From NCBI GenBank assembly GCA_021796115.1, contig JAJYOP010000001.1:36778-100777 (forward strand): DNA of 64,000 bases, read 5' to 3'. The notes beneath the pieces are model-generated. The model was given only the letters and a program-made list of their open reading frames with translations, was not told the DNA's origin and searched no databases. Within the stretch, counting starts at the first letter, position 1. The number at the start of each line of letters is the position of its first letter. This document shows, piece after piece, positions 1 through 28,494 of the stretch. The translations under genes were made by a program, and so were the position numbers. The stretch is from a bacterium. Its GTDB lineage: Bacteria > Omnitrophota > Gorgyraeia > Duberdicusellales > 4484-171.

Positions 1-354
1 TTTCTGTGCATCGGCGCGATAAATACCCTTTTCGGTTATTTTGCTTACGCATTTTTGGTCATTTTGCGGATTGATTACAGGATAGCGTTGACTATCAGCA
101 CAATCGCTGCCGTATTGTTCAATTTTCATACGAACGGCCGTTTTGTTTTTCGTAATACTGGAAGGACAGTATTATTAAAATTCATTTTCTTAAATGTAAT
201 TATGTATATAGTAAATCAAGGGCTTTTAATTTCCTGTGTCAGTTTAGGTATAGGTGAGCTGATCAGCCAGGCGTTTATCGTGCCTGTTATAGTAATTTCA
301 TCGTTCATCGCGAACAAACTCTGGGTTTTTAAAGCAAGAGAGGTTTTAAGCTAA
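1..354 (+). CDS. GtrA-family small membrane protein (polyprenol-P-sugar flippase-like), 5' partial at window edge
   Basis: Frame is open from nt 1 into ORF 55..354. About 100 aa with 3-4 hydrophobic helices, typical GtrA length and context at the head of the glycan locus. Confidence 0.5.
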   Translation, partial: FLCIGAINTLFGYFAYAFLVILRIDYRIALTISTIAAVLFNFHTNGRFVFRNTGRTVLLKFIFLNVIMYIVNQGLLISCVSLGIGELISQAFIVPVIVISSFIANKLWVFKAREVLS

Positions 355-8409: not shown

Positions 8410-9558
8410 ATGAATAAACTTGGCAAAATACCGTTAATTTTAACTTTGTTTGCGGCTATATTTTATTTCGGCATAATTATTTGTTTAATATCGCCATGGT
8501 TAATCAGCAGCCACAAAAAATACAGCATTCAATCATTTGACAGCCATTCGGGAGAAAATTATAAAATCACGCACAAAGAGATCAAGACAGGAAAAAGTTT
8601 ATTAACGCGAGGCCTAAAGATAAACTTCCGCTTCAAGATTTACCATATTGACGGCTATGATAATCTCTTCCAAACTGCTCCGTATAATTCCGGTATCCGG
8701 ATGGAACTTTCCCCTCCCTCGACGCTGGCTTTGATAGCCGACTGCGGAATGCCGTGGGGGGTAAGGGGGTTTATCGTAAGCGATGAGATAGATACCGGCA
8801 GATGGTATAAAGTTATGATTACGATAAATAAATTTAATCACTTATCGGTTTTTTTGGATGGCCGGTCGATCGTAAACGAAACGCTCCCCTTTTTGCATTA
8901 CAGCCTTTCCGACATAGCCGCAGGTACCGGTTTTGACGGAACCAGGATGTTTAACGGAAAAATTTCTGATTTTAATATCGAAGCAGAAATGGTTTCGCAA
9001 CAGTTGTACGCAAAGTTAAATTTTCTAAAAAAAATTTTGGGAAATATTCTCATTTTCATGATACTTTTTAACATAGCAATCTTAATCGCCGATAAAAATA
9101 GCATCTTACTGCTTATTTTTTTTATTTATAGCTTTGGGTTGATAACTATTTTACCCCTGGTAGCGGATAAAGTTTTTTCCTATAACCTCTTCAACGGGGA
9201 AACTGTAGTCTTTAATGATTGGGCATTAAAATTTGTGTTTTCCGAAAAATCCAGGGATTTACTGTCTTACATATTCATGACCTTATCGCTTTTCTTATAT
9301 TATTTCCTGTTTTTTGTTCTGACATATACGCGCAAGGGCGGCCATGGCAGAATCTTTGCTTTATTCTTCGCGCAAAAGGAGTATAAGATTTGGCAGTATT
9401 TATTTATAGCAATGGCGGTAAATTTATTAATAATAAGATTAGGGAAAATATATCATGGGCCATATTTGCTAAGCTTTCAATATATTATATGGGTTCTCTC
9501 TTTTTTTGCATCCATACTAACCCCATTAATAAGAAATAAATATGTCCAGCAAATTTAA
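8410..9558 (+). CDS. family-1 paralog: membrane-anchored ConA/LamG-like domain protein with a multi-TM C-terminal region
   Basis: YDNLFQTAPYNSGIRMELSPPSTLALIAD..WYKVMITIN..DIAAGTGFDGTRMFNGKISDFNI, with an N-terminal TM helix. Confidence 0.5.
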   Translation: MNKLGKIPLILTLFAAIFYFGIIICLISPWLISSHKKYSIQSFDSHSGENYKITHKEIKTGKSLLTRGLKINFRFKIYHIDGYDNLFQTAPYNSGIRMELSPPSTLALIADCGMPWGVRGFIVSDEIDTGRWYKVMITINKFNHLSVFLDGRSIVNETLPFLHYSLSDIAAGTGFDGTRMFNGKISDFNIEAEMVSQQLYAKLNFLKKILGNILIFMILFNIAILIADKNSILLLIFFIYSFGLITILPLVADKVFSYNLFNGETVVFNDWALKFVFSEKSRDLLSYIFMTLSLFLYYFLFFVLTYTRKGGHGRIFALFFAQKEYKIWQYLFIAMAVNLLIIRLGKIYHGPYLLSFQYIIWVLSFFASILTPLIRNKYVQQI

Positions 9559-11377
9559 AAATACTAAGCATACCAGCGCGTTGCATAATATATTTAAAAT
9601 TAATTACCTATTATTATTTCTGGTTGCGGTAATTTTTATTCAAATTTTCTCTATGTTCATACCCTATCTTACGGGTAAAGTGCTTATTACGAATGACTAT
9701 ATTAATATATCCGAAACTACAAAATTGAGAGAAAGATATTTTGATAACACGGAATTTATTCAGAAAGAATGCCTGCGTCATTCCGGTTCTGGAGCAAAAA
9801 CTTTTACTTTGGCTACGGGAATGTCTGGAGGCGGCTACGCAAATTCAAATTTATCAAAGACATTTTTTTCTGCCAATCGTCATGAATTTGCATGGCAGTC
9901 TCAATGCGGATGGCTGATGCATCATCAAAATACTTTATTGTCGCCGATCAACCAGTTCTATTTAGGAAAACAATTGAGCAGAATCAGTCAGCAATACGGC
10001 AGTTTAACTACCGCCTTTTTAACATTCTTAATTAAACTCAGCGGCGGATTAACTTTTGACAATTATTTCAAAGTTCTTTATTTTTTCTACCCATTTTACT
10101 ATTTATTATTTTTTATTGTCTCCGCCTATCTGCTCCGGGACAGTAAGTATCTTTTGCTGGTGGCTGTACTTTCGGCGAGTTTTTTATTTAAACTTTCCTA
10201 TGTTTCCATATATTTGGCCCCGGGGTTTAACCCTATTCGGCAATTGCCGTCATTGCTGGTTTTATTCTTTCTCATGCTGTACCTTCGAAAACGGAAAACC
10301 TCTTCATTTTTCTTGATGCTGGCTTTCTCTATTTTAGCAGTTATTAACAATAAAGAATTTGGATTTTTTGCCGTTGCCGCCGCCACCATAAGTTTGTTTC
10401 TTGAAAATTTCCTTGAAAAAATACCCTTGGGCAGGGGGAAATTTTTTTTCCTGACAGCAACTTTTTTGATTTCTGTTTATCTATTCTTTTTTATACATAT
10501 GGGCAGCAACCCCCTAGAGAAATATTATTTTGTGGGGATCTCGGGGCCTATTATTGACAAGTTTATCTTAAAACTAATCCTGATCATTTTTAGTTTGGTT
10601 TATTTCCTGATCTATAGATTATTGAGGCGCGATAGTGGCCTAAAATATATAGCTGTTTTTTTGTTCTTTTATATTCAAGGAATATTGCTTTATTATATCT
10701 GGGATCCGGCCCCTAACCACTTATTTAGTATATCTAGTCCCCTGGCGCTTTTACCGGTTATTTTGTTAAAGCTTATACTGGATGGTTGGCAGAGGGATAT
10801 AAATAGGAATTTAGTTATTGTGCCCCTTGTTTTGTGCTTATTTTCATTTTTATATTTACCTTCCTGGCGCGGGTACAATAAGGAAAAAGCAATATACCAG
10901 AAAATTTCCGCTGACCATAAAATTTATTCCTGGGATCTTGCGCGAGCGAGGATTAAAACCACCATGAATCCGGAATATTTTATAAACGCAGTCAACCTGA
11001 TACAAAAATATTCAAAAAACAGCAATGGGATTTACATCATATCACAATACGATAATTTTTTGCCGTTTCTCGCGCGAAAATACAGCGCAATGCCGTTTGA
11101 CGAGGTAGCTATAAGTTTATTAACCAGCCGCGAGGTAAATGACTGCATTAATAAAATCTTAAACGATAAACCAGAATACATTTTTATTGATACAGGAATC
11201 GAAGAGGGTATCTATGACAAAGATAAGAATAAAATCCTTGCTTATTTGTCTGCACATTATGATTTTTCCAATAAAATCAAAATGTGGCACGAGCTAAAAA
11301 AAGTCTATATGGGCGTAAAGGATTCCTACCGGTTGATTGAAAAAAGTGATATAATTAGCGTTTATAAAAAGAAATAA
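9542..11377 (+). CDS. family-2 paralog: large polytopic membrane protein with conserved C-terminal soluble domain
   Basis: Overlaps ORF 8410 by 17 nt. Shares all conserved blocks with ORF 6468: CGWLMHHQNTLLSPINQF, SIYLAPGFNPIRQL, YIQGILLYYIWDPAPNH and the C-terminal IYIISQYDNFLPFLARKYSAMP..YIFIDT. Confidence 0.5.
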   Translation: MSSKFKNTKHTSALHNIFKINYLLLFLVAVIFIQIFSMFIPYLTGKVLITNDYINISETTKLRERYFDNTEFIQKECLRHSGSGAKTFTLATGMSGGGYANSNLSKTFFSANRHEFAWQSQCGWLMHHQNTLLSPINQFYLGKQLSRISQQYGSLTTAFLTFLIKLSGGLTFDNYFKVLYFFYPFYYLLFFIVSAYLLRDSKYLLLVAVLSASFLFKLSYVSIYLAPGFNPIRQLPSLLVLFFLMLYLRKRKTSSFFLMLAFSILAVINNKEFGFFAVAAATISLFLENFLEKIPLGRGKFFFLTATFLISVYLFFFIHMGSNPLEKYYFVGISGPIIDKFILKLILIIFSLVYFLIYRLLRRDSGLKYIAVFLFFYIQGILLYYIWDPAPNHLFSISSPLALLPVILLKLILDGWQRDINRNLVIVPLVLCLFSFLYLPSWRGYNKEKAIYQKISADHKIYSWDLARARIKTTMNPEYFINAVNLIQKYSKNSNGIYIISQYDNFLPFLARKYSAMPFDEVAISLLTSREVNDCINKILNDKPEYIFIDTGIEEGIYDKDKNKILAYLSAHYDFSNKIKMWHELKKVYMGVKDSYRLIEKSDIISVYKKK

Positions 11378-12259: not shown

Positions 12260-14068
12260 ATGATTAAATTATCGGATTATATAGTCAAATTGTTCCTTGA
12301 ACATAAAGTCAGAGATGTCTTTATGATATCGGGCGGAGGAGCCATGCATCTTATTGACTCCGTGGGTAAGGAAAAGAAGATAAAATATTTATGCCCGCAT
12401 CACGAACAGGCGGCGGCAATGGCGGCCGAAGGGTATTCACGGGTCAGTGGGAAAATGGGAGTAGTTGTGGTGACTAGCGGCCCGGGAGGTACGAATACCC
12501 TCACTGGTGTTATTCAGCAATGGCTTGACTCAATCCCTTGCCTTTATATATCCGGGCAGATTAAGGAAGAAACAAGTATTGTTTCTTGCCCTGATTTGGG
12601 ATTACGGCAATTAGGCGACCAGGAGATAAATATTGTAGATATCGTCCGGCCCGTAACCAAATATGCGGTTATAGTCAGAGATCCTTTAAGTATTCGCTAT
12701 CATCTGGAAAAAGCCATATACCTGGCTACGCATGGCCGGCCGGGGCCAGTATGGCTGGACATTCCTTTAAACGTCCAGCCAGTTATGATTGATGAAAATA
12801 GATTAGAAGGGTTTAAGCCTGATACAGAAATAGAAAGAAAGAAGCTTCAACTTTCAAAACAAATTTCCGAAACAATAGCTTTGTTAAGAAAAGCAGAAAG
12901 GCCTGTATTTTTAGCGGGGCATGGTATAAGGCTTTCAGGCGCGCAGGATGTTTTCAGGGGATTCATAGAAAAAACCCGCATCCCCGTTTTGACTACTTTT
13001 TGCGGCTTTGATTTATTGCCGTCGGATCACCACTTATATGCGGGCAGAGTGGGGACTTTGGGCAACCGTTCTGGCAACTTTGCTTTGCAAAACGCGGATG
13101 TTTTGCTCTCTGTCGGTTCCAGGAATAATATCCGGCAGGTAAGTTATAATTGGAAGGTTTTTGCGAGGGCCGCCAAGAAAATTGTCGTAGACATAGATGA
13201 AGCTGAACTAAAAAAACCAACAATTAAGCCGGATGTAGCGATTCAAGCCGATGCCAGAGTTTTCTTGACGGAGCTTCTTAAACAAAGTAAAACCATAAAA
13301 TTTCCTGTTTGGAACAAATGGCTTAATTGGTGCATGATACGTAAAAACAAATATCCAGTGGTGTTAAAAGAGTATTGGAAAAGCAATAATCCAGTAAATC
13401 CTTATTGCTTTATAGAAACCTTGACGAATGTTTTAAAAAGAGATACCATTCTCGTTTCAGCTAATGGAACTGCCTGCGTGACATTGTTTCAGGCAGGGGT
13501 TGTTAAAGAAGGCCAGAGAATGTTTTGGAATTCCGGCTGCGCCTCTATGGGCTACGATTTGCCGGCAGCAATCGGCGCGTGCGTGGCTAATAATAATAAA
13601 CCGGTGGTATGCCTGGCGGGAGACGGCAGCCTGCAGATGAATATCCAGGAACTTGAGACCGTTATTGCCTATAATCTGCCAGTAAAGATTTTTGTTCTTA
13701 ACAACAACGGGTATATTTCGATGCGCCAGACGCAGGATGCGTTTTTTTCGGGAAGATATGTCGCCTGCGGCCCCGAAAGCGGAGTAAAATTTCCCGATAT
13801 TTTAAAGGTAGCCAAAGCTTACGGATTTAAGACAAAATCAATAAGCGCTCATAACGAGATGAAGAGAAAAATAAAAGAGGTCCTTAAAACTACGGGTCCG
13901 GTGCTATGCGAAGTAAAAATATCGCAAGATTATAAATTTATCCCCAAAGTATCGTCGCAGTTAAAACCGGACGGCAAATTGGTTTCAAAGCCTCTGGAGG
14001 ATATGTTTCCCTTTTTGCCGCGCGAAGAATTTTATAGCAATATGATTATAAAACCATTACCTGAATAA
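12260..14068 (+). CDS. thiamine-diphosphate-dependent enzyme, acetolactate-synthase/YerE-like
   Basis: TPP-enzyme N-domain (HEQAAAMAAEGYSRVSGKMGVVVVTSGPGGTNTLTGV) and the C-terminal TPP-binding motif GDGS..N-x(25)-NN (CLAGDGSLQMNIQELE..VLNNNGY). 602 aa. Confidence 0.75.
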   Translation: MIKLSDYIVKLFLEHKVRDVFMISGGGAMHLIDSVGKEKKIKYLCPHHEQAAAMAAEGYSRVSGKMGVVVVTSGPGGTNTLTGVIQQWLDSIPCLYISGQIKEETSIVSCPDLGLRQLGDQEINIVDIVRPVTKYAVIVRDPLSIRYHLEKAIYLATHGRPGPVWLDIPLNVQPVMIDENRLEGFKPDTEIERKKLQLSKQISETIALLRKAERPVFLAGHGIRLSGAQDVFRGFIEKTRIPVLTTFCGFDLLPSDHHLYAGRVGTLGNRSGNFALQNADVLLSVGSRNNIRQVSYNWKVFARAAKKIVVDIDEAELKKPTIKPDVAIQADARVFLTELLKQSKTIKFPVWNKWLNWCMIRKNKYPVVLKEYWKSNNPVNPYCFIETLTNVLKRDTILVSANGTACVTLFQAGVVKEGQRMFWNSGCASMGYDLPAAIGACVANNNKPVVCLAGDGSLQMNIQELETVIAYNLPVKIFVLNNNGYISMRQTQDAFFSGRYVACGPESGVKFPDILKVAKAYGFKTKSISAHNEMKRKIKEVLKTTGPVLCEVKISQDYKFIPKVSSQLKPDGKLVSKPLEDMFPFLPREEFYSNMIIKPLPE

Positions 14069-14085
14069 TTATAAAGGGGGAAAAG

Positions 14086-14889
14086 ATGAATGTTTTAGAG
14101 AATCGCATGATCAATATTTTAAAAGAGCTGAAGGAGAAGAACGGCGCAATTGCCGTAAGGGCCGAGTTTGAAGCTGAAGGCACAAGACTTGACGAATTAT
14201 TCCGCCTTAAAGAGATAAGCGTACGCGCCGGTTTGGGCCTGGTTTTAAAAATAGGCGGCTGCGAATCCATAAGAGATATGCTTGAATCACGCATCGTGGG
14301 GGTAAATTGCCTGGTCGCACCCATGGTTGAATCCGCTTACGCCTTACGCAAATATTTGCAGGCGATAAAGAAAGTTTTCACGGCCCAGGAGCGCAAAAGC
14401 ATAAAAATTTCATGCAATATCGAAACGGTGACCGCCTGCCAAAATCTAAAAGAAATGCTTGAAATACCTGAGATAAGCGTGCTTCACGGCATAGTTATAG
14501 GAAGGGTGGATTTATGCTTTTCTTCGGGGAAAAACGAAGAATACGTTAATAACAAAGAAATAACCAAATTAGTCCGCGAGGCAATTGCCGCCGCAAAGAA
14601 GAAGAATCTTGTCTGTATGATGGGCGGAGGGTTATCTCCGGAAAGTATGGAAATTTTTAAAGATCTGTCCGATGGCGCTCTTGATTATTGTGAAACAAGA
14701 AAGGTTTGCTTTTTGTATCCGAAACTTTTGGCCACCGATTATAAAAAAGGCATCTTAAAAGCTCTTGGTTTTGAATTGTTATGGCTCAAGAATAAAGCAA
14801 CATATTATAAAGGCATTACCGATGCCGACAAAGCAAGGCTGTCTTTGATTGAGCAGAAGTATTTAAATGAATTGGACTCTCTGATTTGA
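14086..14889 (+). CDS. HpcH/HpaI aldolase / citrate-lyase-beta family protein (paralog 1)
   Basis: CLVAPMVESAYAL matches the PMVE(T/N) motif of the family. NIETVTA..GIVIGRVDL matches the QIET..GvfiGPaDL motif. Confidence 0.55.
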   Translation: MNVLENRMINILKELKEKNGAIAVRAEFEAEGTRLDELFRLKEISVRAGLGLVLKIGGCESIRDMLESRIVGVNCLVAPMVESAYALRKYLQAIKKVFTAQERKSIKISCNIETVTACQNLKEMLEIPEISVLHGIVIGRVDLCFSSGKNEEYVNNKEITKLVREAIAAAKKKNLVCMMGGGLSPESMEIFKDLSDGALDYCETRKVCFLYPKLLATDYKKGILKALGFELLWLKNKATYYKGITDADKARLSLIEQKYLNELDSLI

Positions 14890-14937
14890 AGTAAAATTAG
14901 TAGATTGTTTATTATCATCCAATAAAAGGAGGCAAAA

Positions 14938-15732
14938 GTGACTATTACCGAACTTAAAATGGTCGATATATTGAAAAAGTTGAAAGACTTATATTACGCC
15001 GTAGGCGTAAAGGCCGAGTTTGAAGCTGAAGGGACGCGCACTGAAGAACTGGTCAGGCTTAAGGAGCTCTGCCTTGCCGCAGATGTCTCACTCACCTTAA
15101 AAATTGGAGGCTGTGAAGCCATTCGTGATATGTATGACGCGAGGGCTATTGGCGTTAATTATATGGTTGCCCCCATGGTAGAAACGCCTTTTTCTCTGCA
15201 GAAGTATTTAAAAGCTATTGATATAGTTTTTTCCGCAGACGAACAGGAAGAAATAGACTTTCTTATTAATATTGAAACAAAACTAGCGGCAGATAATTTT
15301 TCCGATATGTTGAAGATAACAGAAATTAAAAAACTCGACGGTATCGTAATGGGCCGAGTTGATTTTGTTGGTTCTATGGGGCTTGATAGAAAAGCAGTCA
15401 ACGGCGATAATATATTGACCATTACACGGGACCTTATTTCTGCGGCAAAAATGCATGATTTAACTTGTGTTGTCGGTGGCGCAATTTCTGTGGAGTCCCT
15501 GCCATTTTTAAGAAAATTGCCCAAAGCTTGTCTGGATAGGTATGAGACTAGAAAGATATGCTTTTCTTGTCCCGAAGCGCTTGGCGAAACCGCAGACAAA
15601 GGCATTTCAAAAGCTGTTGAATTTGAACTACTATGGTTAAAAAGTAAGCAAAATTATTATACAGCTATTTCTAAAGAGGATGATAAGCGTATAACAATGC
15701 TTGAAGAAAGATTCAGGCAGAGTAAAAAATAA
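14938..15732 (+). CDS. HpcH/HpaI aldolase family protein (paralog 2, tandem duplicate of 14086..14889)
   Basis: Roughly 45% identical to the upstream ORF (AEFEAEGTR, KIGGCEAIRDM, MVAPMVETPF, NIETKLA, GIVMGRVDF). GTG start with RBS AAAGGAGG. Confidence 0.55.
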   Translation: MTITELKMVDILKKLKDLYYAVGVKAEFEAEGTRTEELVRLKELCLAADVSLTLKIGGCEAIRDMYDARAIGVNYMVAPMVETPFSLQKYLKAIDIVFSADEQEEIDFLINIETKLAADNFSDMLKITEIKKLDGIVMGRVDFVGSMGLDRKAVNGDNILTITRDLISAAKMHDLTCVVGGAISVESLPFLRKLPKACLDRYETRKICFSCPEALGETADKGISKAVEFELLWLKSKQNYYTAISKEDDKRITMLEERFRQSKK

Positions 15733-15779
15733 TTCGTTAGTCTATCGTATTAATATCCCGCAGGCGGTTTATTAAAAAT

Positions 15780-16448
15780 ATGGTCAAAAGAAGAGCCCTT
15801 ATAACAGGCGGTTCACGTGGCATAGGCAAGGCCATTGTCGACTTGCTGGAAGATAAAGGCATCTTTGTATTGGCTCCTTCCAGAAAAGAAATGAATTTGC
15901 TCTCTGATTCCGCCATAGATAAATATCTCTCTTCTTTAAAAAAGCCAATCGACATAATAATTAATAACGCAGGAATTAACCTTTTATCGGCAGGGTATGA
16001 ATTGGAAGAAGACAATATCAGGGAGAGTTTACAGGTAAATCTGCTTGCGCCTTTACGCATCATAAGGAAAATTATTCCTGATATGATGCATCAGAAATAT
16101 GGCCGCATAGTAAATATAAGCTCCATATGGAGCGTTATTACTAAGCCGAGGCGTTTAACCTATACAATGACAAAATCAGGATTAAATGGAATGACTAAAT
16201 CTTTAGCTATAGAATTGGCTCCATATAATATCCTTGTTAACTGTATTGCCCCAGGATACGTTAATACAGAGCTTACGAGAAAAAACAATTCTTCAGAAGA
16301 GATAGAAAATATAAAAAATACAATCCCTCTAAAACGTTTGTCAGAACCTGTAGAAATAGCTGAAATTGTATCTTTCCTTGTTTCAGAAAAAAATTCTTAT
16401 ATCACAGGCCAGGTAATCATTGCAGATGGAGGGTATACATGCCTGTGA
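15780..16448 (+). CDS. short-chain dehydrogenase/reductase (SDR)
   Basis: ALITGGSRGIGKAI, NAGI and YTMTK (YxxxK), 222 aa. Confidence 0.8.
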   Translation: MVKRRALITGGSRGIGKAIVDLLEDKGIFVLAPSRKEMNLLSDSAIDKYLSSLKKPIDIIINNAGINLLSAGYELEEDNIRESLQVNLLAPLRIIRKIIPDMMHQKYGRIVNISSIWSVITKPRRLTYTMTKSGLNGMTKSLAIELAPYNILVNCIAPGYVNTELTRKNNSSEEIENIKNTIPLKRLSEPVEIAEIVSFLVSEKNSYITGQVIIADGGYTCL

Positions 16449-17533
16449 TTAAAATAAAATCAAATATTGGTAATTATAATGTTTTATTTGGAAATATCGC
16501 CGCATATTTAAAAGACATTGAAAAAAGAGGATTACGGAAATGTTATATTATCGATGAGAATGTTTGGAAAATATATAATAAAAAAGAATTAAATAATATC
16601 AATAAAGACGAAGCGATAATCTTACCAATTTCAGAAACAAAAAAAAATCTTAATACGGTAAAATGGTTATATAATACACTTATTGAACGTTCTGCAAAAC
16701 GTAATCTGACGATTATCTCTGTTGGTGGAGGTATCACTCAAGACATTACGGGCTTTCTTGCTTCAACATTGTATCGCGGAGTTAACTGGATATTCATTCC
16801 GACAACGTTTCTGGCTCAAGCCGATAGTTGCATAGGAAGTAAAACATCTTTGAACTATCGAAATTTCAAAAATCTGATTGGCACCTTTTACCCGCCGTCA
16901 GAAGTTTTCATTGACCCAGGTTTTATTTATAGCCAAAAAACTCTTGATTTTTATAGCGGTCTCGGAGAAGTTATAAAACTTCATCTTATGGGTGGGATTG
17001 ATAAAACAAAAGATTTGCTCCGGGCGTATCCCGAAATCATTGCGAAAGATAGAAAAACATTAGAAAAAATAATTTACAATGCACTTACCATAAAAAAAGC
17101 TTATATAGAAAACGATGAATTCGATAGAGGAAAAAGAAATTTACTTAATTATGGCCATTGCTTTGGCCACGCGCTGGAAACAACATCCAGATTTAAAATA
17201 CCTCACGGCATCGCGGTTTTGTTCGGTATGATGCTGGCTAATATTATTGCCTGTAGCAGAAATCTTCTTAAAAAAGATTTTAAAGAATTTATTTTTAGCA
17301 AAGTATTTTTACCTTCAGCATGTATCTTACCGAAAAAATCCTGGCTGCAGAAAGAGGCTGTGTTAGGCGCAATGAAAAAAGATAAAAAACGCACAGGAAA
17401 AGATCTGGCGTTAATCATGCTAATGGATGGTTGCCGCATGATGAGGGTAAATGACGTGTCAGAGAAAGAGGCTATTAATGCCTTAAGACAATTGGAATAC
17501 TGTTTAAACAAAGATTCCCTTAATAAGTTATAA
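16439..17533 (+). CDS. 3-dehydroquinate-synthase-like sugar-phosphate cyclase family protein
   Basis: GGGITQDITGFLASTLYRGVNWIFIPTTFLAQADSCIGSKTSLN, KNLIGTFYPP, GEVIK and NYGHCFGHALE all align with the DHQS-family signature blocks (nucleotide-binding site and metal-His sites). Confidence 0.7.
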   Translation: MPVIKIKSNIGNYNVLFGNIAAYLKDIEKRGLRKCYIIDENVWKIYNKKELNNINKDEAIILPISETKKNLNTVKWLYNTLIERSAKRNLTIISVGGGITQDITGFLASTLYRGVNWIFIPTTFLAQADSCIGSKTSLNYRNFKNLIGTFYPPSEVFIDPGFIYSQKTLDFYSGLGEVIKLHLMGGIDKTKDLLRAYPEIIAKDRKTLEKIIYNALTIKKAYIENDEFDRGKRNLLNYGHCFGHALETTSRFKIPHGIAVLFGMMLANIIACSRNLLKKDFKEFIFSKVFLPSACILPKKSWLQKEAVLGAMKKDKKRTGKDLALIMLMDGCRMMRVNDVSEKEAINALRQLEYCLNKDSLNKL

Positions 17534-17544
17534 AGGGTAGAAGT

Positions 17545-18489
17545 ATGCAAAAAATTATTTCAATAGTTATATCTGCTTTTAACGAGGAGGGTTGCGTAGA
17601 AGAATTAGCTATCCAACTTAAAAAAGTATTTGCGCAAAATAATAATTATACATTTGAAGTTATCATGGTCGATAATGGCTCTACAGATAGGACTTTTGAA
17701 AAGCTTTTCGAAATACACAGAAGTGACGACAAATTCAGAATACTTCAATTGGCAAGGAATTTCGGCATGGATGGCGGCATAACTGCCGGCTTAAAATATG
17801 CAAAAGGGGATGCTGCTGTAATAATGACAGCAAATTTACAAGATACACCTTCTTTGATTACCGAATTTATAAAAAAATGGGAAGAAGGTTATGAAAATGT
17901 TTATGGTATCGTCAAAAAACGCACAGGTAAAGGTCTGATTCGTAGAATGAATTCGCAAATTTTTTATTTTATCATTAACCGTATGACAGGCAGCCTGATA
18001 CCGAAGAATGTAAGCGATTTTAGGCTGGTAGATAGGAAGATTTATCAAACAATCAATGTGATGGATGAAAGGAACAGGTTTTTAAGGGGGATGTTTGCCT
18101 GGGTGGGTTTTAAGTCTGTCGGTATAGAATATGAGAGAGGCAAGAGGTTTGCGGGAAAATCTCACGCGCTTTCAAAGAATGTCTTTTCGTTGGCTATTAG
18201 AGGAATTTTCGCTTTTTCTTATGTACCTATACGTTTTATCGCTGCCTCAGGATTCCTCCTGTCGTTATTTTCTTTTATTTTTCTTATAATTTCTATTTTA
18301 GGGTTTTTTATAAAAGGAGTACCTTTTAAAGGATACGGAATGATTGTTTCTTTGATAGTATTTATGTTTAGTTTGGTATTTTTTATTTTGGGCATATTGG
18401 GCCAATATATAGCTCAGATTTACGAAGAAGTAAAGGCAAGGCCTAATTATATAGTAAAAAAGCTAGTCGGGCTTACTGAGGCGAAGTAA
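17545..18489 (+). CDS. GT2 polyprenyl-phosphate glycosyltransferase (GtrB/ArnC/DPM1-like) with C-terminal TM helices
   Basis: IVISAFNEEGCV..VIMVDNGSTDRT GT2 N-domain with two C-terminal hydrophobic helices, 314 aa. This architecture is typical of undecaprenyl-phosphate sugar synthases. Confidence 0.75.
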   Translation: MQKIISIVISAFNEEGCVEELAIQLKKVFAQNNNYTFEVIMVDNGSTDRTFEKLFEIHRSDDKFRILQLARNFGMDGGITAGLKYAKGDAAVIMTANLQDTPSLITEFIKKWEEGYENVYGIVKKRTGKGLIRRMNSQIFYFIINRMTGSLIPKNVSDFRLVDRKIYQTINVMDERNRFLRGMFAWVGFKSVGIEYERGKRFAGKSHALSKNVFSLAIRGIFAFSYVPIRFIAASGFLLSLFSFIFLIISILGFFIKGVPFKGYGMIVSLIVFMFSLVFFILGILGQYIAQIYEEVKARPNYIVKKLVGLTEAK

Positions 18490-18522: not shown

Positions 18523-21027
18523 ATGAATAAGATTAACATAGCCGTTAAAAACATTATAAAAAAAAATATATTTATACTTTCCGCAACACAATTACTTCTT
18601 TCCGTTATTTTCGGCGCCGTTTGTTTGTGGAAAGGCGTAAATTTTTTAAAGAACCAGACGATAATTATTGCCAATTCCAATTTTAACCCCTGGGTTTATC
18701 CTTTTTTTCACCCTACCGAATACTCACTGCCTAATTATTTGTTTCTATGTTTATTACTTGCTTTGGTAGGAATTTTGATATATATTTTGAATCCCACCAA
18801 AATAATAAAAAGATTTTCTGAAACGGTATCCCCTTATTATCTGCTTATTTCGTTGGTTGCTTCCGTCTCTTTTTTCTTTATATTTTTTATTCAAAGCTGT
18901 TTTGTGCATTCAGACCCCGGCCGCCTGCTTGGCTTATTTTTCCCCGCTTTGATTGCGATAGTGCCTTTCGTGCCGAATATTTTTTCCTTTTCGAATAAAT
19001 ATTTGTATAAATCGGCCGTAATCGTTTTATTTTTAATAATCGTATGGGAAGTGTTAAGAATTTTTATGGGCCCGGTATATATTATGAATGAATACCCAAG
19101 GCTATATGGTAAAACATTAATAGAAGGCAGATACGTAGATAACAAGGATTTCTTAGAAAAAGTCAAGCCGATAGATAAAGAGTTAATCAAACTTGCCGTT
19201 TTTTATCGCGACAAAAATAAATACAAAGGTATCGGCGGGTATTACAAGATAAAAAAATATAAAAATTTAAGGTTAGAGCAAAATTTTATCAATCTGCTTA
19301 ATGACGATGGATTCAATATCCTGATTGATAATTTTATCAAAGGAAACACTCATTTTGTCGACAAAGGAAACATTTTAGAATTAGATGAAATAGCTTTGCA
19401 AAATGACAATAATTTGGCAAGTATCATGCGAAGCCGCTTAAGGCAGATAGACGTAGAAAATATAAGGCTCTTTTATGTTTATAACATGCTTGAATATTAC
19501 CATCAGGACATGGGGCGGGGGCAGATTAACCATATCGGTTACGTATTGAATCCTTTGAACGAATATAGCTCCGGCAAGCCGCTGAAAGAGCTTTATATGC
19601 AATACGGCTTAGGCAATACCTTGCTCATGAAGTGGACGATGGGGCTTTTCGGAGGCATGTCCATTCAAAATTACTATAAATGTTATATATATTACATTAT
19701 ATATTTCATTCTTGCTTTCTTTACCCTGCAGTTTCTTTTTAGAAATATTTTTTTCAGCCTCGCTTCTTTTGCCGCTTTTACCTATTCGTTGTTCGGCGTA
19801 GGATTCCTCGGTTTTATTTTGGCCCCCGGCATAATACCCACCATACATTTTTTTGACATAATAGTCTTAACGTTTTTAATCCTGTTCTTTAAACGCAACA
19901 ACAAAGCCTATCTGACAGCAGCTTTTCTGTCAACGGCGCTAGCCATTTTTATAAACGCTCAATTCGGGGCAATGCTTATGCTGGCCTGCTTTATCTCCTT
20001 TACCCTCTATATTCTTGAGAATAAGAAAGGCAACCCCAAGTTAATGTGGTTAGCCACGCTATTTATCGCATTAATATTGAATATCGCTTTGCTGTTATTT
20101 TTACTGGAGAGGACCTCTTCTTTGGATATTTTTAAATATCTTGTCAGCGGTTTTCTTTCCTGGCCGGCTCACTTTATAATTATTTTCCTTACGATCGTAT
20201 ATTTGATTATTTCTTATGCCTTTATGTTTTTATTAAAAAGGCACAGATTTTATCTTAAGTATATTTATGCCTTTTTTTTCATCTATACGCAATTTCTGTT
20301 TGTCTATTATTATTGGTCCGGTTTGCCGAACCACCTTCCGATGGTCATACCGTTTCTTTGCACGCAGCTGTTTTTAATGCTGTTCATACTAAGAACAGAA
20401 ATATTCGGTTTCTCTGAATATTTGATAATAATGGTCGATATCGTGGCAAAAGTATTTTTGATTATCGTAGGGTTTCTCCTGCTTATATCAATAATAAGTT
20501 TTTATAGGGAAAAAAACCAGTTTGAGGAAAACTTTGCGCAACATAGACTTCATCACTGGGATTTTGAGCGTGCCAAAGTTTTATCCACAGTCGATCCCGT
20601 TCCAATAGAAGACAGCATAACATTGATAAATAAGTATGTGCCGCAGGAGGAAGGCGTATATATTATTTCAAAATACGATAATTTAATCCCGTTTTTAGCC
20701 AAAAAGCCAAGCCTGATGCCTTTTTCCGAAATGGCCGTCTTCCTGATTTCCAAAAAAGAAAGCGATACGACAATACAAAAAATAGAGCGGATCAAGCCAA
20801 GATACATTTTTGTTGATAACGATATCAGCGAAAATATTAATGATCCCTGGGGAAAATTATTTAGCAACAACTTTATTAATACCGAAAGAGCAGCAAGGTA
20901 CGGCAGGTATATGGAGTTAAAGAAGCTCTTTGACCGGATCATCCCTCACTATAAGAAAATTTTTCAGGGTAAACTGCTTTCTGTCTATGAGAGGATACCC
21001 GGTGGACAGCCAAAGGATAAAATATAG
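18523..21027 (+). CDS. family-2 paralog (divergent, 834 aa): polytopic membrane protein with an extra N-terminal/soluble insertion and the conserved C-terminal domain; putative GT-C partner of the upstream GtrB-like enzyme
   Basis: Shares GQINHIGYVLNPLNEY..GG.SIQNYYK, the PNH motif (WSGLPNH) and the C-terminal VYIISKYDNLIPFLAKKPSLMP..YIFVDND with ORFs 6468 and 9542. Confidence 0.5.
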   Translation: MNKINIAVKNIIKKNIFILSATQLLLSVIFGAVCLWKGVNFLKNQTIIIANSNFNPWVYPFFHPTEYSLPNYLFLCLLLALVGILIYILNPTKIIKRFSETVSPYYLLISLVASVSFFFIFFIQSCFVHSDPGRLLGLFFPALIAIVPFVPNIFSFSNKYLYKSAVIVLFLIIVWEVLRIFMGPVYIMNEYPRLYGKTLIEGRYVDNKDFLEKVKPIDKELIKLAVFYRDKNKYKGIGGYYKIKKYKNLRLEQNFINLLNDDGFNILIDNFIKGNTHFVDKGNILELDEIALQNDNNLASIMRSRLRQIDVENIRLFYVYNMLEYYHQDMGRGQINHIGYVLNPLNEYSSGKPLKELYMQYGLGNTLLMKWTMGLFGGMSIQNYYKCYIYYIIYFILAFFTLQFLFRNIFFSLASFAAFTYSLFGVGFLGFILAPGIIPTIHFFDIIVLTFLILFFKRNNKAYLTAAFLSTALAIFINAQFGAMLMLACFISFTLYILENKKGNPKLMWLATLFIALILNIALLLFLLERTSSLDIFKYLVSGFLSWPAHFIIIFLTIVYLIISYAFMFLLKRHRFYLKYIYAFFFIYTQFLFVYYYWSGLPNHLPMVIPFLCTQLFLMLFILRTEIFGFSEYLIIMVDIVAKVFLIIVGFLLLISIISFYREKNQFEENFAQHRLHHWDFERAKVLSTVDPVPIEDSITLINKYVPQEEGVYIISKYDNLIPFLAKKPSLMPFSEMAVFLISKKESDTTIQKIERIKPRYIFVDNDISENINDPWGKLFSNNFINTERAARYGRYMELKKLFDRIIPHYKKIFQGKLLSVYERIPGGQPKDKI

Positions 21028-21088: not shown

Positions 21089-22405
21089 ATGAGAAACATG
21101 ACAAAAAAGGTATTTATAGATTCAATCACATATGTTATTTCTACATTCTTCGTTTCTCTGATATGGCTTGTTCTCACGGGGCTTATGGCGCACCATTTCA
21201 CCGCCTATCAATTTGGTTTGTGGTCCCTGGTTATTACCATCAATAGCCTTTGCCTTAGCTTGGATTTAGGTTTTGCTAACGCGCTTCGTAATAAAATTGC
21301 TAGTCTCTTTGCAAATGATAGAAATAACGATAAAGAAGAACTGGCTTATTTCTTTTCTACTTTTTATGTTTTTTTATCTATAGTGGTAGTACTTTCTCTT
21401 CTCACTTTATTTTCCAAGAATTTTATACCATGGAATATATTATTTAATACCAGTGACCAGGCGATTATTTTGGAAGGCTCAAAGTTATTTATTATCGCTA
21501 TCATCTTTTCTCTTTTTAATGTTGTTTTCTCATTGAATATGGCGGGTTTTTTTGGCTATCAAGAATCATTCTGGAATTCTTTGTTTGCATTTCTTTCCAA
21601 GCTATCGATTCTGGTATTGACGGTATGTTTTATATCTATACGCATTTCTTTCTTCTGGACCACCGTCCTTTTGTTTGCCGGGATTTTATTTTCTTCAATA
21701 TTTGCATTTAATTTTTTCTTACATAAAAGAAAATGGAAAATTTTGTATATCGAATACAAGGAATTAATTTATAAGCTTAAGGAATTATGGAGTAAAAGTA
21801 TATATTTTGCTTTTTTACAGCTTTTTGCAGTCATATACCTTTGGCTGGATATGTTTATAGTTACTAAGAATTTTGGGTTAGAGGTAGTTGGCGATTATTC
21901 CCTGGTTAAAAGAGGATATCTGGTTTTTAGCACTTTATACCTGGCATTTCTTGCTCCTATCTGGTCGGCGTATACGGTAGCGATAGAAAAAAATGATATT
22001 GCTTGGGCAAAAAAGGTTTTAAATAAATCATGCCTTATCGTTTTTTTTATATTTATACCCCTCATATTTTTTATTTGCATATTCGGAGCAAAGATAATTT
22101 ATTTCTGGACGGGAAAACATATAAATAATTTAAGCTTGTACCTGCTTTTGGGCATATGGAGTTTAGTATATAGCTGGAATAATTGTTTTTCTATCTTTTT
22201 GAATGCAACCGGAAACCTGAAACTTCAAATATTCTTGATTGGCTTGGCAATTGTTTTGTTTATACCGCTTTCGAATTATTTCGGGAAATATTACGGGGTA
22301 GCCGGAATATGTACAGCATTGATCCTGGTTTCTTTGCCGATAGCTGTTTCTAATCCCATTCAAAGCTACTTGTTTTTAAATAAGAAATCACTGCTTAAAT
22401 CGTGA
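21089..22405 (+). CDS. Wzx-like oligosaccharide flippase (MOP/polysaccharide biosynthesis protein family)
   Basis: 438 aa with about 12 TM helices, in a polysaccharide locus. There is no soluble domain. Confidence 0.55.
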   Translation: MRNMTKKVFIDSITYVISTFFVSLIWLVLTGLMAHHFTAYQFGLWSLVITINSLCLSLDLGFANALRNKIASLFANDRNNDKEELAYFFSTFYVFLSIVVVLSLLTLFSKNFIPWNILFNTSDQAIILEGSKLFIIAIIFSLFNVVFSLNMAGFFGYQESFWNSLFAFLSKLSILVLTVCFISIRISFFWTTVLLFAGILFSSIFAFNFFLHKRKWKILYIEYKELIYKLKELWSKSIYFAFLQLFAVIYLWLDMFIVTKNFGLEVVGDYSLVKRGYLVFSTLYLAFLAPIWSAYTVAIEKNDIAWAKKVLNKSCLIVFFIFIPLIFFICIFGAKIIYFWTGKHINNLSLYLLLGIWSLVYSWNNCFSIFLNATGNLKLQIFLIGLAIVLFIPLSNYFGKYYGVAGICTALILVSLPIAVSNPIQSYLFLNKKSLLKS

Positions 22406-23331: not shown

Positions 23332-24879
23332 ATGAATAATACCGGCTTTGCCAATAATGGCTATTCAAAATCTGCGATATATTGGCAATTTATATTGATA
23401 GTGCTACTTATAAGTGTCAGCTTATATAATCTTTTTTCACCACCCATTACACCTGTTATTACCCGCCAGACCCAGACTGCGATGTTAACTGAAAACTTTG
23501 CCAAGGAAGGGTTTAGTTTAAAAGGCCTCTATTTAAACCTGCGCGGCAATGGGAGAGTCGTGGTGGCTAATGAATTTCCCATTTATAATTTTATAACCGG
23601 TTTATTCTTTTTGTTTTTTAAAAATACTGTTTTTTGGGGGAAATTAATCAGCCTTACGGCAGCATGTATAAGCTTATTATGCCTGTTTAGGCTTATAAGA
23701 AAGTTATTTGGAGAAAAAATTGCTATTTACAGTACGTTTTTTTTCATTCTTTCTCCCATAGGCATTTTAATGAACGCCTCTGTCCAGCCGGATTCGCTTG
23801 GGCTGATGTTTTTGCTAATTGCACTGGTAATTCTATTGGATTGGAAAGAAAAGCAGAGAACGAGCACTTTATTGTTATTCAGTATTACGTTACTTTTGTC
23901 AGGATTATCTAAATTTCCATTAATCGTTCCCTATCTTCCCGTTATAGCTGCAGCATTTTTGTATCATAAAGGCAAGTTGAGATTACCGAGATTAAAAGAA
24001 ATAATTATTATCTTGGCGTTTTTCGTTTTGCCTTTTATCGCATGGTATCTATATCGCGGTCACCTGACAGATCCGGCCTATAGCAGAGGAGAATTTGCAT
24101 ATTTCTTTATAGGCGACCTCAGAAGATTTTTGTCACCAGATTATTACATAAAACCTTTTTTCTCAATAGCCGCACTTGTATGGTGCGGTATGGGCTTGTT
24201 ATTTTTTATTTCAGGATTAAAAAAGCTAAGCCTTTTGGAAGCGTTGTTGCTTATAGGAATACCATTCTATTTTGTAATTGTTCCAACGGTTCGCGACCAA
24301 TATTATTATATGTACCCTACGATACCTATTTTTGCTCTTTTAATGGGTCGTGGATTTCACAATCTGACTGAATATTGTAAAAGACGTAATTCATTGCCGC
24401 TTATATATATGTGCACTTTTATTTTTTTCTTAGGTTTTATTATTGCAGTCACTTATGTTATGCGGCAAGATAAGATATCTTGGGAAGCCGCTAAAGCAAT
24501 AAAAAGATTCAGTCTTCCTACGGATCTTGTCGCTACAATAACAATACATGATCGCGGCCAAGGCATCGGACTTTTTAATCCCAGCATTTTGTATTTATCA
24601 AACCGAAAAGGCTGGAGCATACCGGTCACATCCACAAAATTGAAGGATACAGCAAATCAATTAGAAATGATACATAAAAACGGCGCTTCCTTGCTTGTAA
24701 TAACATGGTATACCCCAGATCTTGAATTATGGACTTCGAAATTTTTACCCCTAAATTTACACCGCAACCCCGGTGTAGATGGCAAAGCTTTTTTTGAGGG
24801 ACTCCAAAAAAAATATCTCGTTATCTATAAGTCCAACAATTACGCGCTACTTGATTTAAACAATAATCGTAAGCGATAA
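23332..24879 (+). CDS. ArnT/PMT-family GT-C membrane glycosyltransferase (GT39/GT83-like)
   Basis: The N-terminal region (NEFPIYNFITGLFF..FGEKIAIYSTFFFILSPIGIL..QPDSLGLMFLLIAL) matches the ArnT/PMT loop-1 and TM pattern. 515 aa, polytopic. Confidence 0.65.
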   Translation: MNNTGFANNGYSKSAIYWQFILIVLLISVSLYNLFSPPITPVITRQTQTAMLTENFAKEGFSLKGLYLNLRGNGRVVVANEFPIYNFITGLFFLFFKNTVFWGKLISLTAACISLLCLFRLIRKLFGEKIAIYSTFFFILSPIGILMNASVQPDSLGLMFLLIALVILLDWKEKQRTSTLLLFSITLLLSGLSKFPLIVPYLPVIAAAFLYHKGKLRLPRLKEIIIILAFFVLPFIAWYLYRGHLTDPAYSRGEFAYFFIGDLRRFLSPDYYIKPFFSIAALVWCGMGLLFFISGLKKLSLLEALLLIGIPFYFVIVPTVRDQYYYMYPTIPIFALLMGRGFHNLTEYCKRRNSLPLIYMCTFIFFLGFIIAVTYVMRQDKISWEAAKAIKRFSLPTDLVATITIHDRGQGIGLFNPSILYLSNRKGWSIPVTSTKLKDTANQLEMIHKNGASLLVITWYTPDLELWTSKFLPLNLHRNPGVDGKAFFEGLQKKYLVIYKSNNYALLDLNNNRKR

Positions 24880-27003: not shown

Positions 27004-28494
27004 GTGAGCCATAACGTCAAAGAAACAATTATAAAAGATACTACTAAATATTCCTTTGCCCAATACAGTGCCCAGGCGATAGGTTTTGTTATCAGCACAT
27101 CGATGCGCGCTTTTTTAGGGCCATATTATATGGGCATATGGAGTATTTTGCAGGTTATATTAAGTTATTTGAATTATTTACCCCTTGGCGTGACCGATGC
27201 GGCGACGTATAAGATCCCGTTTTACAGAGGCGATAGCGATAAATTATCCGAAGAAGAAATTAAAAATACGGCCTTCAGTTTTATATTTTTGGTTTATTTA
27301 TTATCGAGTATAGGGCTCATAATTGCGGCGCTTTTATTGCGTAAAAGATATCCGCCGGAAGTCATTGTGGGGTTGCTCGCCTTAGCGGTATACATAATTT
27401 TACAGAGGCTCTATGCCTTTTATCTAGTTGTTCTTAGGGCATATAAAAATATAACCGTGCTCGCAAAGTCAATTATTTTTGACGCCGTAGTAAATTTGCT
27501 GCTGGTATTTTTACTTGTAAGGCAGTTTAAGATCTATGGCTTATATGTCGCTATATCTATTTTGGCGGCGTTAAATACGTTATTCGTGCACATATCGACA
27601 AAATACAATATAAATTTTAACTTCAATTTTAAACGCTTGAAAGAATTAGTGATGTTCGGCCTGCCGCTTTCTTTGAACGGCTTTTTAGGCGAGATCTTGA
27701 AAAGCTTAGATCGTATAATGATCGCTAGCATGATGAACCTGACTTTTGTCGGTTATTACAGCGTAGCCGTTATGGGAAGGAATTATATTTCCGGACTTTC
27801 CACCGGATTAGGCGTAGTTGCTATACCGCATCTTCAGGAGGTTTATAGTAAAAATAAGGATATCGGCGATATAAAAAAATTCGTTATTGCACCAACCCTG
27901 GTTTTATCCTATTTATTGCCGCCGATACTCGGCATCATTTATTTAATAAGCCCATTGTTTGTGAAAATCATATTGCCGCAATATACTCAAGGAGTTGTGG
28001 CGCTACAGATCATGCTTTTAAGCACTTTTTTCCTTTCCTGTTCGCCCCAATCCGGGCAATTTTTAATAACCATCGGCAAGCAGGCAAGGCTTATCCCCAT
28101 AAGTTTAGCCGCTATCATTATCAACGCTGGGCTGAATTATATTTTTATTAAAAATGGGTTTGGCATAAACGGAGTATCAATTGCGACAAGTGTTTCTTCT
28201 TTTTTTATCTTTATGATAACATTAATATATGTGATGAAGCATTTTGCCGGTATCAAGGGAATATCCACGTTTATTTTTAAAATTATGTGGCCGCTGCTTT
28301 ATATCATAGTTGTTGTAATTGGGTGCGATTATTTTATAAGTGGTATGAGCCTTTATTTGGAAACAGGCATTAAAATGGCTATTAGTTGTATTGCGTCCCT
28401 CCCTTTATTTTATATTATCAATAAAGAAACCGGCATTTTTAACGTATTTATTAAAACTATGAAGGCAAAGTTAAAAAAGAAGAGTTCACTATAA
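27004..28494 (+). CDS. Wzx-like flippase / polysaccharide biosynthesis (MOP superfamily) membrane protein, second copy
   Basis: 496 aa with 12-14 TM helices and no soluble domain. Confidence 0.55.
   Translation: MSHNVKETIIKDTTKYSFAQYSAQAIGFVISTSMRAFLGPYYMGIWSILQVILSYLNYLPLGVTDAATYKIPFYRGDSDKLSEEEIKNTAFSFIFLVYLLSSIGLIIAALLLRKRYPPEVIVGLLALAVYIILQRLYAFYLVVLRAYKNITVLAKSIIFDAVVNLLLVFLLVRQFKIYGLYVAISILAALNTLFVHISTKYNINFNFNFKRLKELVMFGLPLSLNGFLGEILKSLDRIMIASMMNLTFVGYYSVAVMGRNYISGLSTGLGVVAIPHLQEVYSKNKDIGDIKKFVIAPTLVLSYLLPPILGIIYLISPLFVKIILPQYTQGVVALQIMLLSTFFLSCSPQSGQFLITIGKQARLIPISLAAIIINAGLNYIFIKNGFGINGVSIATSVSSFFIFMITLIYVMKHFAGIKGISTFIFKIMWPLLYIIVVVIGCDYFISGMSLYLETGIKMAISCIASLPLFYIINKETGIFNVFIKTMKAKLKKKSSL

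Follow-up and report, generated by a model that had tools for sequence, protein, structure and literature searches.

The Gtr, Arn and Pgf systems share a three-component logic, in which a sugar is loaded, flipped and then transferred (PMC11127046, PMC12041528). In the Gtr systems that glucosylate the O-antigens of Shigella and Salmonella (GtrA, GtrB and a glycosyltransferase (GT) of the GT-C type), this logic serves periplasmic glycosylation after polymerisation (PMC11127046), and in a three-component pentofuranose system the GT-C enzyme, GT136 of Citrobacter youngae (ORF12), carries an appended carbohydrate-binding module (PMC11127046). Systems of this kind are familiar, and enzymes of the GtrC type are notorious for their diversity. 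Here we analyse a 64,000-nucleotide stretch of an Omnitrophota genome (GenBank assembly GCA_021796115.1, contig JAJYOP010000001.1, positions 36,778 to 100,777 of the forward strand), referred to as the window, and a gene at 18523–21027 within it that encodes a membrane protein of 834 amino acids (aa). This protein and two shorter paralogues in the window form what we call family-2. The 834-aa protein is probably an integral-membrane glycosyltransferase of GT-C fold from an unnamed sequence family; we infer its activity, donor and acceptor, the roles of its residues and its formation of complexes.

The locus resembles the Gtr systems in its parts, a GtrB-type synthase, a GtrA-family protein and a polytopic protein of predicted GT-C fold, and in several genomes GtrA, GtrB-type and family-2 genes are mutually adjacent. 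The window genes concerned are these:

18523–21027, plus strand: family-2 long form, 834 aa, ATG start; 15 predicted transmembrane (TM) helices and a C-terminal extracytoplasmic α/β domain, predicted GT-C fold.
17545–18489, plus strand: polyprenyl-phosphate glycosyltransferase of GtrB/ArnC/PgfS type; GT2 domain and two C-terminal TM helices.
1–354, plus strand: small membrane protein of the GtrA family, putative lipid-sugar flippase (PF04138, 4.2e-17), truncated by the window edge; an earlier note on the window had already taken it for GtrA-like.

Family-2 departs from the Gtr enzymes in its 15 TM helices, the first four of which form a separable module, and in a conserved α/β domain at the C terminus, and in our searches its sequence resembled no named GT-C family. 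It is chromosomal and lies inside a large biosynthetic locus, with no phage association seen, whereas gtr clusters are often prophage-borne.

The evidence for the fold comes from an AlphaFold2 model of the 834-aa protein, built on a 39-sequence alignment (mean predicted local distance difference test score (pLDDT), 84.7; predicted template-modelling score (pTM), 0.85), in which residues 232–288 are the sole long stretch of weak confidence. When the model was searched with Foldseek, the top 16 matches were all GT-C enzymes, at a probability of 1.0 or 0.98 and with Pmt2 and Pmt4 among the best, and the first match outside GT-C had a probability of 0.06. The modelled TM bundle matches those of solved GT-C enzymes, as members of the superfamily should. 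We rejected two other assignments. For a protein of the Wzy/WaaL/SEDS type, FtsW ranked far below classical GT-C enzymes in the fold search; for an oligosaccharyltransferase (GT66: STT3, PglB or AglB), the WWDYG motif is absent, and neither WWD nor WW occurs in the three window proteins.

In sequence, the family stands by itself. The three window proteins match no Pfam-A or NCBIfam model even at E values up to 1, in a Pfam-A scan over 24,736 models, among them those for PMT_2 and GT87, by which neighbouring genes were recognised. For 10 diverse relatives, too, neither Pfam nor NCBIfam gave a family, all 39 aligned members are without a Pfam family at E up to 0.01, and a profile search of PDB sequences gave nothing meaningful. 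The earlier note had proposed named GT-C families for comparison; membership in these was not borne out, as no Pfam-A model matched any of the 39 members, with YfhO and DUF2079 (presence in our Pfam copy assumed) and likewise ArnT covered by the whole-database scans and not queried one by one. With hhalign, the family-2 profile found nothing in the PMT_2 and GT87 proteins of the window taken as single sequences, and a profile of GT87 homologues gave P = 0.086 (probability 0.7%; reversed control, 0.39). A 40-sequence PMT_2 profile gave a weak signal confined to the C-terminal domain (residues 698–827 versus 386–512; P = 0.0017, probability 15.6%, reversed control 0.39). Because of these negative comparisons, we place family-2 in GT-C at the level of its predicted fold only, as a separate and unnamed sequence family.

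Known systems and families of this kind differ from it in detail. Set against the ArnC/ArnT (GT83) pathway of lipid A aminoarabinose, family-2 has no match to the PMT_2/ArnT hidden Markov model (HMM), another TM count and other conserved residues, and no arn-type sugar-modification genes lie near it. The GT87 enzymes, polyprenyl-phosphate-mannose-dependent mannosyltransferases of the PimE type, are about 400 aa in length and lack the C-terminal domain, and profile similarity to them was not found. The eukaryotic and archaeal enzymes that use dolichyl-phosphate (Dol-P) sugars (ALG3, PMT1/2/4, ALG9/12 and the glycosylphosphatidylinositol (GPI) mannosyltransferase GPI-MT-I) share 8–12% sequence identity with family-2 and differ in domain of life, lipid carrier and extramembrane domains. 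GT136 offers several parallels: like family-2, it was recognised as GT-C only through predicted structure, its proposed catalytic acid stands just past the TM helix ahead of the first periplasmic domain, its conserved His and Tyr residues are proposed to bind phosphate, and it has an accessory β-rich glycan-binding module. Its system differs in the donor synthase, a UbiA-like enzyme dependent on phosphoribosyl pyrophosphate (PRPP), and in a flippase of the MATE family, and the lectin-like module associated with family-2 is instead an N-terminal LamG domain, either fused or carried by a second chain that also has the four TM helices.

Family-2 is also sizeable. A word-indexed search found 37 relatives, and wherever a copy bears a name from its source, that name is hypothetical protein. 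When 1.84 billion cluster representatives were searched exhaustively with an HMM, 611 matched at E up to 1e-3, of which 393 were within 1e-30, and a scan of GTDB species genomes yielded 19 loci, from Nitrospirota, Nitrospinae, Syntrophaceae, Syntrophorhabdus, other ‘delta proteobacteria’, Elusimicrobia, Gastranaerophilales and Geobacter sp. AOG1. By group, the carriers are Nitrospirota, Nitrospinota, Desulfobacterota (including Geobacter), Elusimicrobia and Melainabacteria; the Geobacter genome, which has a RefSeq NZ_ accession and no label as a metagenome-assembled genome (MAG), may be from a cultured strain. The median length is 812 aa among 176 representatives, 122 of which reach at least 760 aa, so the 834-aa form is the norm of the family. 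We regard family-2 as an unannotated sequence family, new in its motif set, in its conserved C-terminal domain and in a separable four-TM module (with or without LamG) that is either fused or split off.

To define the topology of the 834-aa protein, loops were taken from the model helices and their sidedness from the positive-inside rule: Lys and Arg account for 11 of the 47 residues in ‘in’ loops and for 1 of the 69 in ‘out’ loops. The resulting layout has a cytoplasmic N terminus and 15 TM helices, and places loops 183–380, 426–442, 532–550 and 600–608, as well as the C-terminal domain 665–834, on the outside. The parts of the gene that matter below, all on the plus strand, are these:

18523–18996, plus strand: four-TM N-terminal module (residues 1–158), with the external-loop motif W57..F61.H63-P64.
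19069–19662, plus strand: large extracytoplasmic loop (residues 183–380), equivalent of the GT-C first external loop (EL1), from model helix boundaries, the positive-inside rule and the alignment.
19087–19095, plus strand: N189-E190-Y191, seven residues past TM5.
19531–19566, plus strand: H337-IGYVLNPL-N346-E347-Y348, the motif of the earlier note, on loop helix 334–349 of the model.
19822–19857, plus strand: A-P-G-x-x-P-x-x-H442-x-x-D445, at the outer end of TM8.
20314–20334, plus strand: W598-SGLPN-H604, in the short external TM13–TM14 loop, which has no Lys or Arg and is predicted outside.
20515–21024, plus strand: C-terminal α/β domain (residues 665–834), carrying H674, W679, T689, S716, D719 and D765.

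Conservation, calculated from a 173-member alignment, follows this layout closely: every position conserved in at least 85% of members lies in a predicted external loop, at an outer helix end or in the C-terminal domain. The large loop holds N189 (94%), T198 (92%), N321 (96%), E324 (91%), H337 (99%), N346 (88%), E347 (86%) and Y361 (100%); further on come Y394 (100%), P435 (98%), G436 (100%), P439 (99%), H442 (90%), D445 (95%), W598 (95%) and H604 (91%), and the C-terminal domain adds H674 (94%), W679 (98%), T689 (94%), S716 (98%), D719 (97%) and D765 (94%). Clustering of conserved residues on the outer face is a feature of active GT-C enzymes (PMC10920833). The H-x(2,3)-(L/V)-x-P-x-N-(E/Q)-(Y/F) motif had been described as invariant and as sitting in an extracytoplasmic loop. 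It is present, midway along the large loop, and the predicted topology puts it outside, neither buried in the membrane nor on the cytoplasmic side, but it is not strictly invariant, as the figures for H337, N346 and E347 make clear. It had also been put forward as a catalytic or metal site, and here a different motif fits the catalytic part better. In solved GT-C enzymes the first external loop usually bears the catalytic Asp or Glu, directly past the TM helix before it (PMC11127046). The family-2 protein has such a long loop, predicted to be extracytoplasmic, with a conserved acidic residue near the end of the preceding helix, position 190 being Glu in 129 and Asp in 36 of the 173 members (acidic in 165), an equivalence to the catalytic Asp judged by position alone. 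Because it occupies this position and is acidic in nearly all members, N-(E/D)-(Y/F) after TM5 is in our view more likely to supply the catalytic base. H337, N346 and E347 are likely, with R332, Y361, H442, D445 and H604, to be ligands of the donor phosphate, the sugar or a metal.

The gene immediately upstream suggests where the donor might come from. The product of 17545–18489 has a GT2 domain (PF00535, 3.5e-26), TM peaks at 238–256 and 267–285, and full-length NCBIfam matches to PgfS (1.5e-69) and ArnC (4.4e-37), both below the equivalog cut-offs. This is the architecture expected of a GtrB-type polyprenyl-phosphate sugar synthase, in agreement with the earlier note, and 33 bp separate the gene from that of the 834-aa protein. 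The same note called the pairing a classic arrangement, and we found that it recurs in unrelated lineages, many times together with GtrA. In 9 of the 19 genome loci, family-2 has a GtrB-like gene no more than 10 kb away, and four of the GtrB-less loci end at contig edges just upstream. The GtrB-type genes found beside family-2 elsewhere are 32–37% identical to that of the window over the full length and have two C-terminal TM helices. The order is GtrA–GtrB–family-2 in L004 (Elusimicrobia), L018 and L026 and family-2–GtrA–GtrB in L005, L016 and L017 (Geobacter); in L003 and L010 (for L003, a Nitrospirota MAG) GtrB-like genes flank family-2 on both sides. GtrA is directly adjacent in L004, L005, L016, L018 and L026, and lies 17 kb upstream of the pair in the window; the window GtrA is homologous to those flanking GtrB and family-2 in L004 and L005. 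We also observed a DDE transposase between the GtrB-like gene and family-2 in L003 (6246–7973; the same region as L010), where the second GtrB-like gene follows immediately downstream.

From these observations we propose the following mechanism. Working at the cytoplasmic face, the GtrB-type enzyme would charge undecaprenyl phosphate with a sugar taken from a nucleotide sugar, the small GtrA-type protein (or a Wzx-like one) would flip the lipid-linked sugar, and on the outer side of the inner membrane the family-2 protein would pass the sugar on to a surface glycan. The active site would form at the membrane–periplasm interface from the loop after TM5 (N-E-Y, E324, R332, H337, N346, E347 and Y361), the start of TM8 (H442 and D445) and the TM13–TM14 loop (H604), with the acidic residue of N-(E/D)-Y as base and with His, Arg and Tyr residues that hold a metal or the phosphate of the donor. 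Positioning of the acceptor would be aided by the C-terminal α/β domain; the acceptor itself is most likely a surface polysaccharide because the locus is of the O-antigen/lipopolysaccharide (LPS) type. The protein is modular, a four-TM module followed by an 11-TM core that would be catalytic.

This modularity is most apparent in the two short copies of the window and in the genes before them, members of a second family (family-1) that carries LamG-like domains. They are listed here with a fifth gene that shares the N-terminal module of family-1:

6468–8318, plus strand: family-2 short form, 616 aa; 11 TM helices and the C-terminal domain.
9542–11377, plus strand: family-2 short form, 611 aa; family-2 paralogue.
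5188–6471, plus strand: family-1 protein, 427 aa; TM anchor, periplasmic LamG-like domain and five TM helices.
8410–9558, plus strand: family-1 protein, 382 aa; LamG (PF13385, 1.8e-5) and TM module.
3124–5118, plus strand: LamG with a family-1-type N terminus, fused to a GT87 GT-C domain, 664 aa (PF09594, 1.2e-12; PF13385, 1.3e-3).

The motif blocks and the C-terminal domain that the earlier note had quoted as common to all three family-2 proteins are all present. The 834-aa protein is paralogous to the 616-aa copy (30% identity over 507 aa, E = 1e-56) and to the 611-aa copy (9542–11377), and the two short copies are 45% identical to each other (E = 2e-164). The family-2 blocks in the window copies are MCGWFMHHHNALLAPINEY, QCGWLMHHQNTLLSPINQF and GRGQINHIGYVLNPLNEY, and further common blocks are GG....NY.K, PNH and IYIISKYDN..PFLA...MP...KP.Y.F.D. 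The fuller pattern W-x-P-(A/G)-PNH had been claimed for all three; its PNH is indeed shared, but the W-S-G-L-P-N-H of the 834-aa copy does not fit the rest. Nor does the extra N-terminal region of about 350 aa attributed to that copy hold up, both in length and in what it signifies: the net excess is about 215 aa, made up of four N-terminal TM helices and the insertion at 232–288 in the external loop (low in model confidence and absent from the short copies), and the long form is the rule in the family. TM5 of the 834-aa copy corresponds to TM1 of the short copies.

We compared the paralogues over 22 key conserved polar or aromatic positions. The 834-aa copy retains all 22, and the 616-aa and 611-aa copies deviate at four each; 98 of the 173 alignment rows, which count the two short copies twice, deviate at one at most. 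Replaced in both short copies are R332, H442 and D445, which are otherwise 77–95% conserved. In addition, the 616-aa copy has N-N-Y where the family has N-E-Y, and the 611-aa copy has N-D-Y and a Gln at E347. The short copies still have H337, N346 and H604, as well as the C-terminal domain residues, and three other proteins in the 575–616-aa range (P0086, P0121 and P0125) also lack H442 and D445. The loss of these two residues therefore looks like a trait of the subgroup and not like random decay; it could mean altered specificity or reduced activity.

Each short copy directly follows a family-1 gene: the stop codon of 5188–6471 overlaps the start codon of 6468–8318 in an ATGA (4 nt), and 8410–9558 overlaps 9542–11377 by 17 nt. 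Family-1 is predicted to have both termini inside and LamG in the periplasm. By BLASTP, its residues ~225–423 match the first ~150 residues of many long family-2 representatives at E values down to 1e-13 (for example, residues 264–423 of the 427-aa protein against residues 18–172 of P0105, E = 1e-13; about 30 further matches). Both modules also occur in single chains, in the order LamG, family-1 TM module and family-2 core (P0115, 1032 aa, from a Nitrospiraceae MAG; P0087, 1091 aa; P0026, 1155 aa); P0115 matches the 427-aa family-1 protein at E = 1e-35, and its residues 46–374 are 33% identical to the 382-aa protein over 331 aa (E = 1e-45). Direct BLASTP of family-1 against the 834-aa copy was not significant and direct hhalign was weak (E = 0.057), so that the link appears through other long members and the fusion proteins. 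The parity of TM helices also fits a split, as family-1 ends in the cytoplasm and the short family-2 proteins begin there. On the homology of the family-1 TM region to the long N termini, the fusion proteins and this parity, we interpret family-1 plus short family-2 as a split version of the LamG-bearing long form; the long N-terminal region is the ancestral state and the short copies are split genes. In the short paralogues, then, the four-TM module is carried, with LamG, by family-1. Carbohydrate-binding modules on GT-C enzymes (EmbC, AftD and GT136) bind the acceptor glycan (PMC11127046). The lectin-like LamG domain probably does likewise, and a family-1 protein and its family-2 partner would therefore act as one enzyme made of two chains.

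The N-terminal 260 aa of the 3124–5118 product are 39% identical to the N terminus of P0115, so the same LamG N terminus stands on a GT87 core that Pfam recognises, and family-2 is thereby placed in the functional slot of a known GT-C core. The LamG module is shared by two GT-C cores, family-2 and GT87, that have no detectable sequence similarity to each other, and LamG–GT87 fusions recur in family-2 loci L012, L014, L023 and L025. In L007 (3085–7925), proteins of 981 aa and 636 aa are encoded directly upstream of tandem family-2 genes (1155 and 767 aa); neither has a Pfam match, and BLAST showed no similarity of either to family-1, family-2, GT87 or PMT_2. Tentatively, we suggest the possibility that family-2 founds a new GT-C family at the CAZy level, with two separable membrane modules (four TM helices with or without LamG, and an 11-TM core with the α/β domain), and that it may be reserved for an unusual sugar made by the thiamine pyrophosphate (TPP)-, HpcH- and dehydroquinate (DHQ)-synthase-like genes that travel with it. 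The modules would then be found in a single chain, in a fusion with LamG or in two polypeptides whose translation is coupled, and the split would lie within the GT-C membrane domain. We know of no characterised GT-C transferase that is split within its membrane domain.

The first 39.6 kb of the window form the O-antigen/LPS-type locus. Its sugar-pathway genes comprise CDP-hexose genes, an epimerase, a TPP enzyme, two HpcH aldolases, a short-chain dehydrogenase/reductase (SDR) and a DHQ-synthase-like protein, and its export and transfer genes two Wzx-like proteins, methyltransferases, GT2 and GT4 enzymes, a Bac_transf initiating transferase, a Wzy_C protein and a GT9 heptosyltransferase. Besides family-2, three GT-C genes are recognisable by Pfam, one PMT_2 and two GT87, of which two remain to be listed:

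23332–24879, plus strand: GT-C of the ArnT/PMT_2 type, 515 aa (PF13231, 1.4e-13); homologues are named ArnT family or GT39.
38447–39649: second GT87 gene.

Between the CDP-hexose genes (1410–3151) and the GtrB-like gene runs a set of genes (12260–17533) for the TPP-dependent enzyme, the paralogous HpcH/HpaI-type aldolases (14086–14889 and 14938–15732), the SDR and the 3-dehydroquinate-synthase-like protein, homologues of which accompany family-2 in L004, L018, L025 and L026. The run resembles a pathway for an unusual sugar, branched or of higher carbon number, and its product may be the donor. Candidate flippases of the Wzx/Polysacc_synt type are encoded at 21089–22405 and 27004–28494. The former lies directly downstream of the 834-aa gene, has a weak Pfam match (3e-5) and is 38% identical to the product of a gene that adjoins a family-1 gene in L006/L020; we considered it as a conserved family-2 partner and rejected this, its similarity to the ~440-aa neighbours elsewhere being weak or none. 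Within the locus, 28501–30228 encodes a 575-aa protein with an S-adenosylmethionine (SAM)-methyltransferase domain and a weak protein-kinase-like region (Pkinase, 6.5e-6, residues 249–369). The locus ends (34605–39649) with the Wzy_C protein (O-antigen ligase/polymerase family), the GT9 heptosyltransferase (36578–37534) and the second GT87 gene, and beyond it lie the housekeeping genes xseA, an M48 peptidase, PNPase, FtsK, a RodZ-like gene and a radical SAM MiaB-like gene.

Several points weigh against the 834-aa protein and its paralogues being GT-C transferases supplied by the GtrB-type neighbour. A sequence-level link to any characterised GT-C family was not found, and the assignment derives from predicted structure. 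The correspondence of the conserved residues to solved GT-C active sites is one of position in the sequence and predicted topology. About half of the family-2 loci (10 of 19) have no GtrB-like gene within 10 kb, and other GT-C genes of the window could use the same lipid-linked sugar. Both short copies are without H442 and D445, and the 616-aa copy also without the acidic residue 190.

The synteny points bear on the alternative that family-2 uses a different donor, for example an oligosaccharide linked to undecaprenyl pyrophosphate (Und-PP), and acts as an oligosaccharyltransferase, ligase or polymerase, while the GtrB product goes to the PMT_2 enzyme (23332–24879) or the GT87 enzymes. The three further GT-C genes of the locus and the GtrB-less loci speak for this, but in Geobacter the GtrA–GtrB pair adjoins family-2, no other GT-C gene was called within 8 kb of family-2 in L005, the WWD motif is missing, and the locus already has a separate Wzy_C protein and Wzx flippases; we consider this alternative unlikely. 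The acceptor could also differ, the system glycosylating a protein and not a polysaccharide, by the same chemistry, as in extracytoplasmic O-glycosylation of the PMT/Pgf type. PgfS, a GT-A enzyme of protein glycosylation in Streptococcus mutans, works with the GT-C enzymes PgfM1 and PgfM2 (PMC12041528); it is the best NCBIfam match of the synthase, and Pmt2 and Pmt4 rank high in the fold search. The PgfS match is far below its equivalog cut-off, however (235 versus 500 bits), the associated LamG modules suggest glycan binding, and the 39-kb locus, with its Bac_transf, Wzx, Wzy_C and GT9 heptosyltransferase proteins and many GT2/GT4 genes, is that expected for a polysaccharide, which makes a protein acceptor quite improbable. 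Finally, that family-2, or at least its two short copies, are non-catalytic GT-C-fold subunits (a scaffold, or a partner that binds acceptor or lipid, like PIG-U in the GPI transamidase) would explain the missing R332, H442 and D445 and the Asn for Glu/Asp at position 190 of the 616-aa copy, but is very improbable in view of the complete set of key positions in the 834-aa copy, the at most single deviations of most members, the outer-face clustering typical of active enzymes (PMC10920833) and the conserved residues that even the short subgroup keeps; it is more plausible for the short copies.

With its split, fused and LamG-bearing forms, family-2 offers a natural experiment in the way that enzymes of GT-C fold acquire additional TM helices and modules for binding the acceptor. 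Once exported, O-antigens, cell walls and surface proteins are decorated by GT-C enzymes, which thereby set serotype, phage receptors and evasion of antibiotics or immunity. They are hard to annotate because their families have almost no sequence similarity to one another. Given the wide spread of family-2 across phyla, naming it would make surface-glycan loci easier to annotate in environmental diderm bacteria that have received little study.

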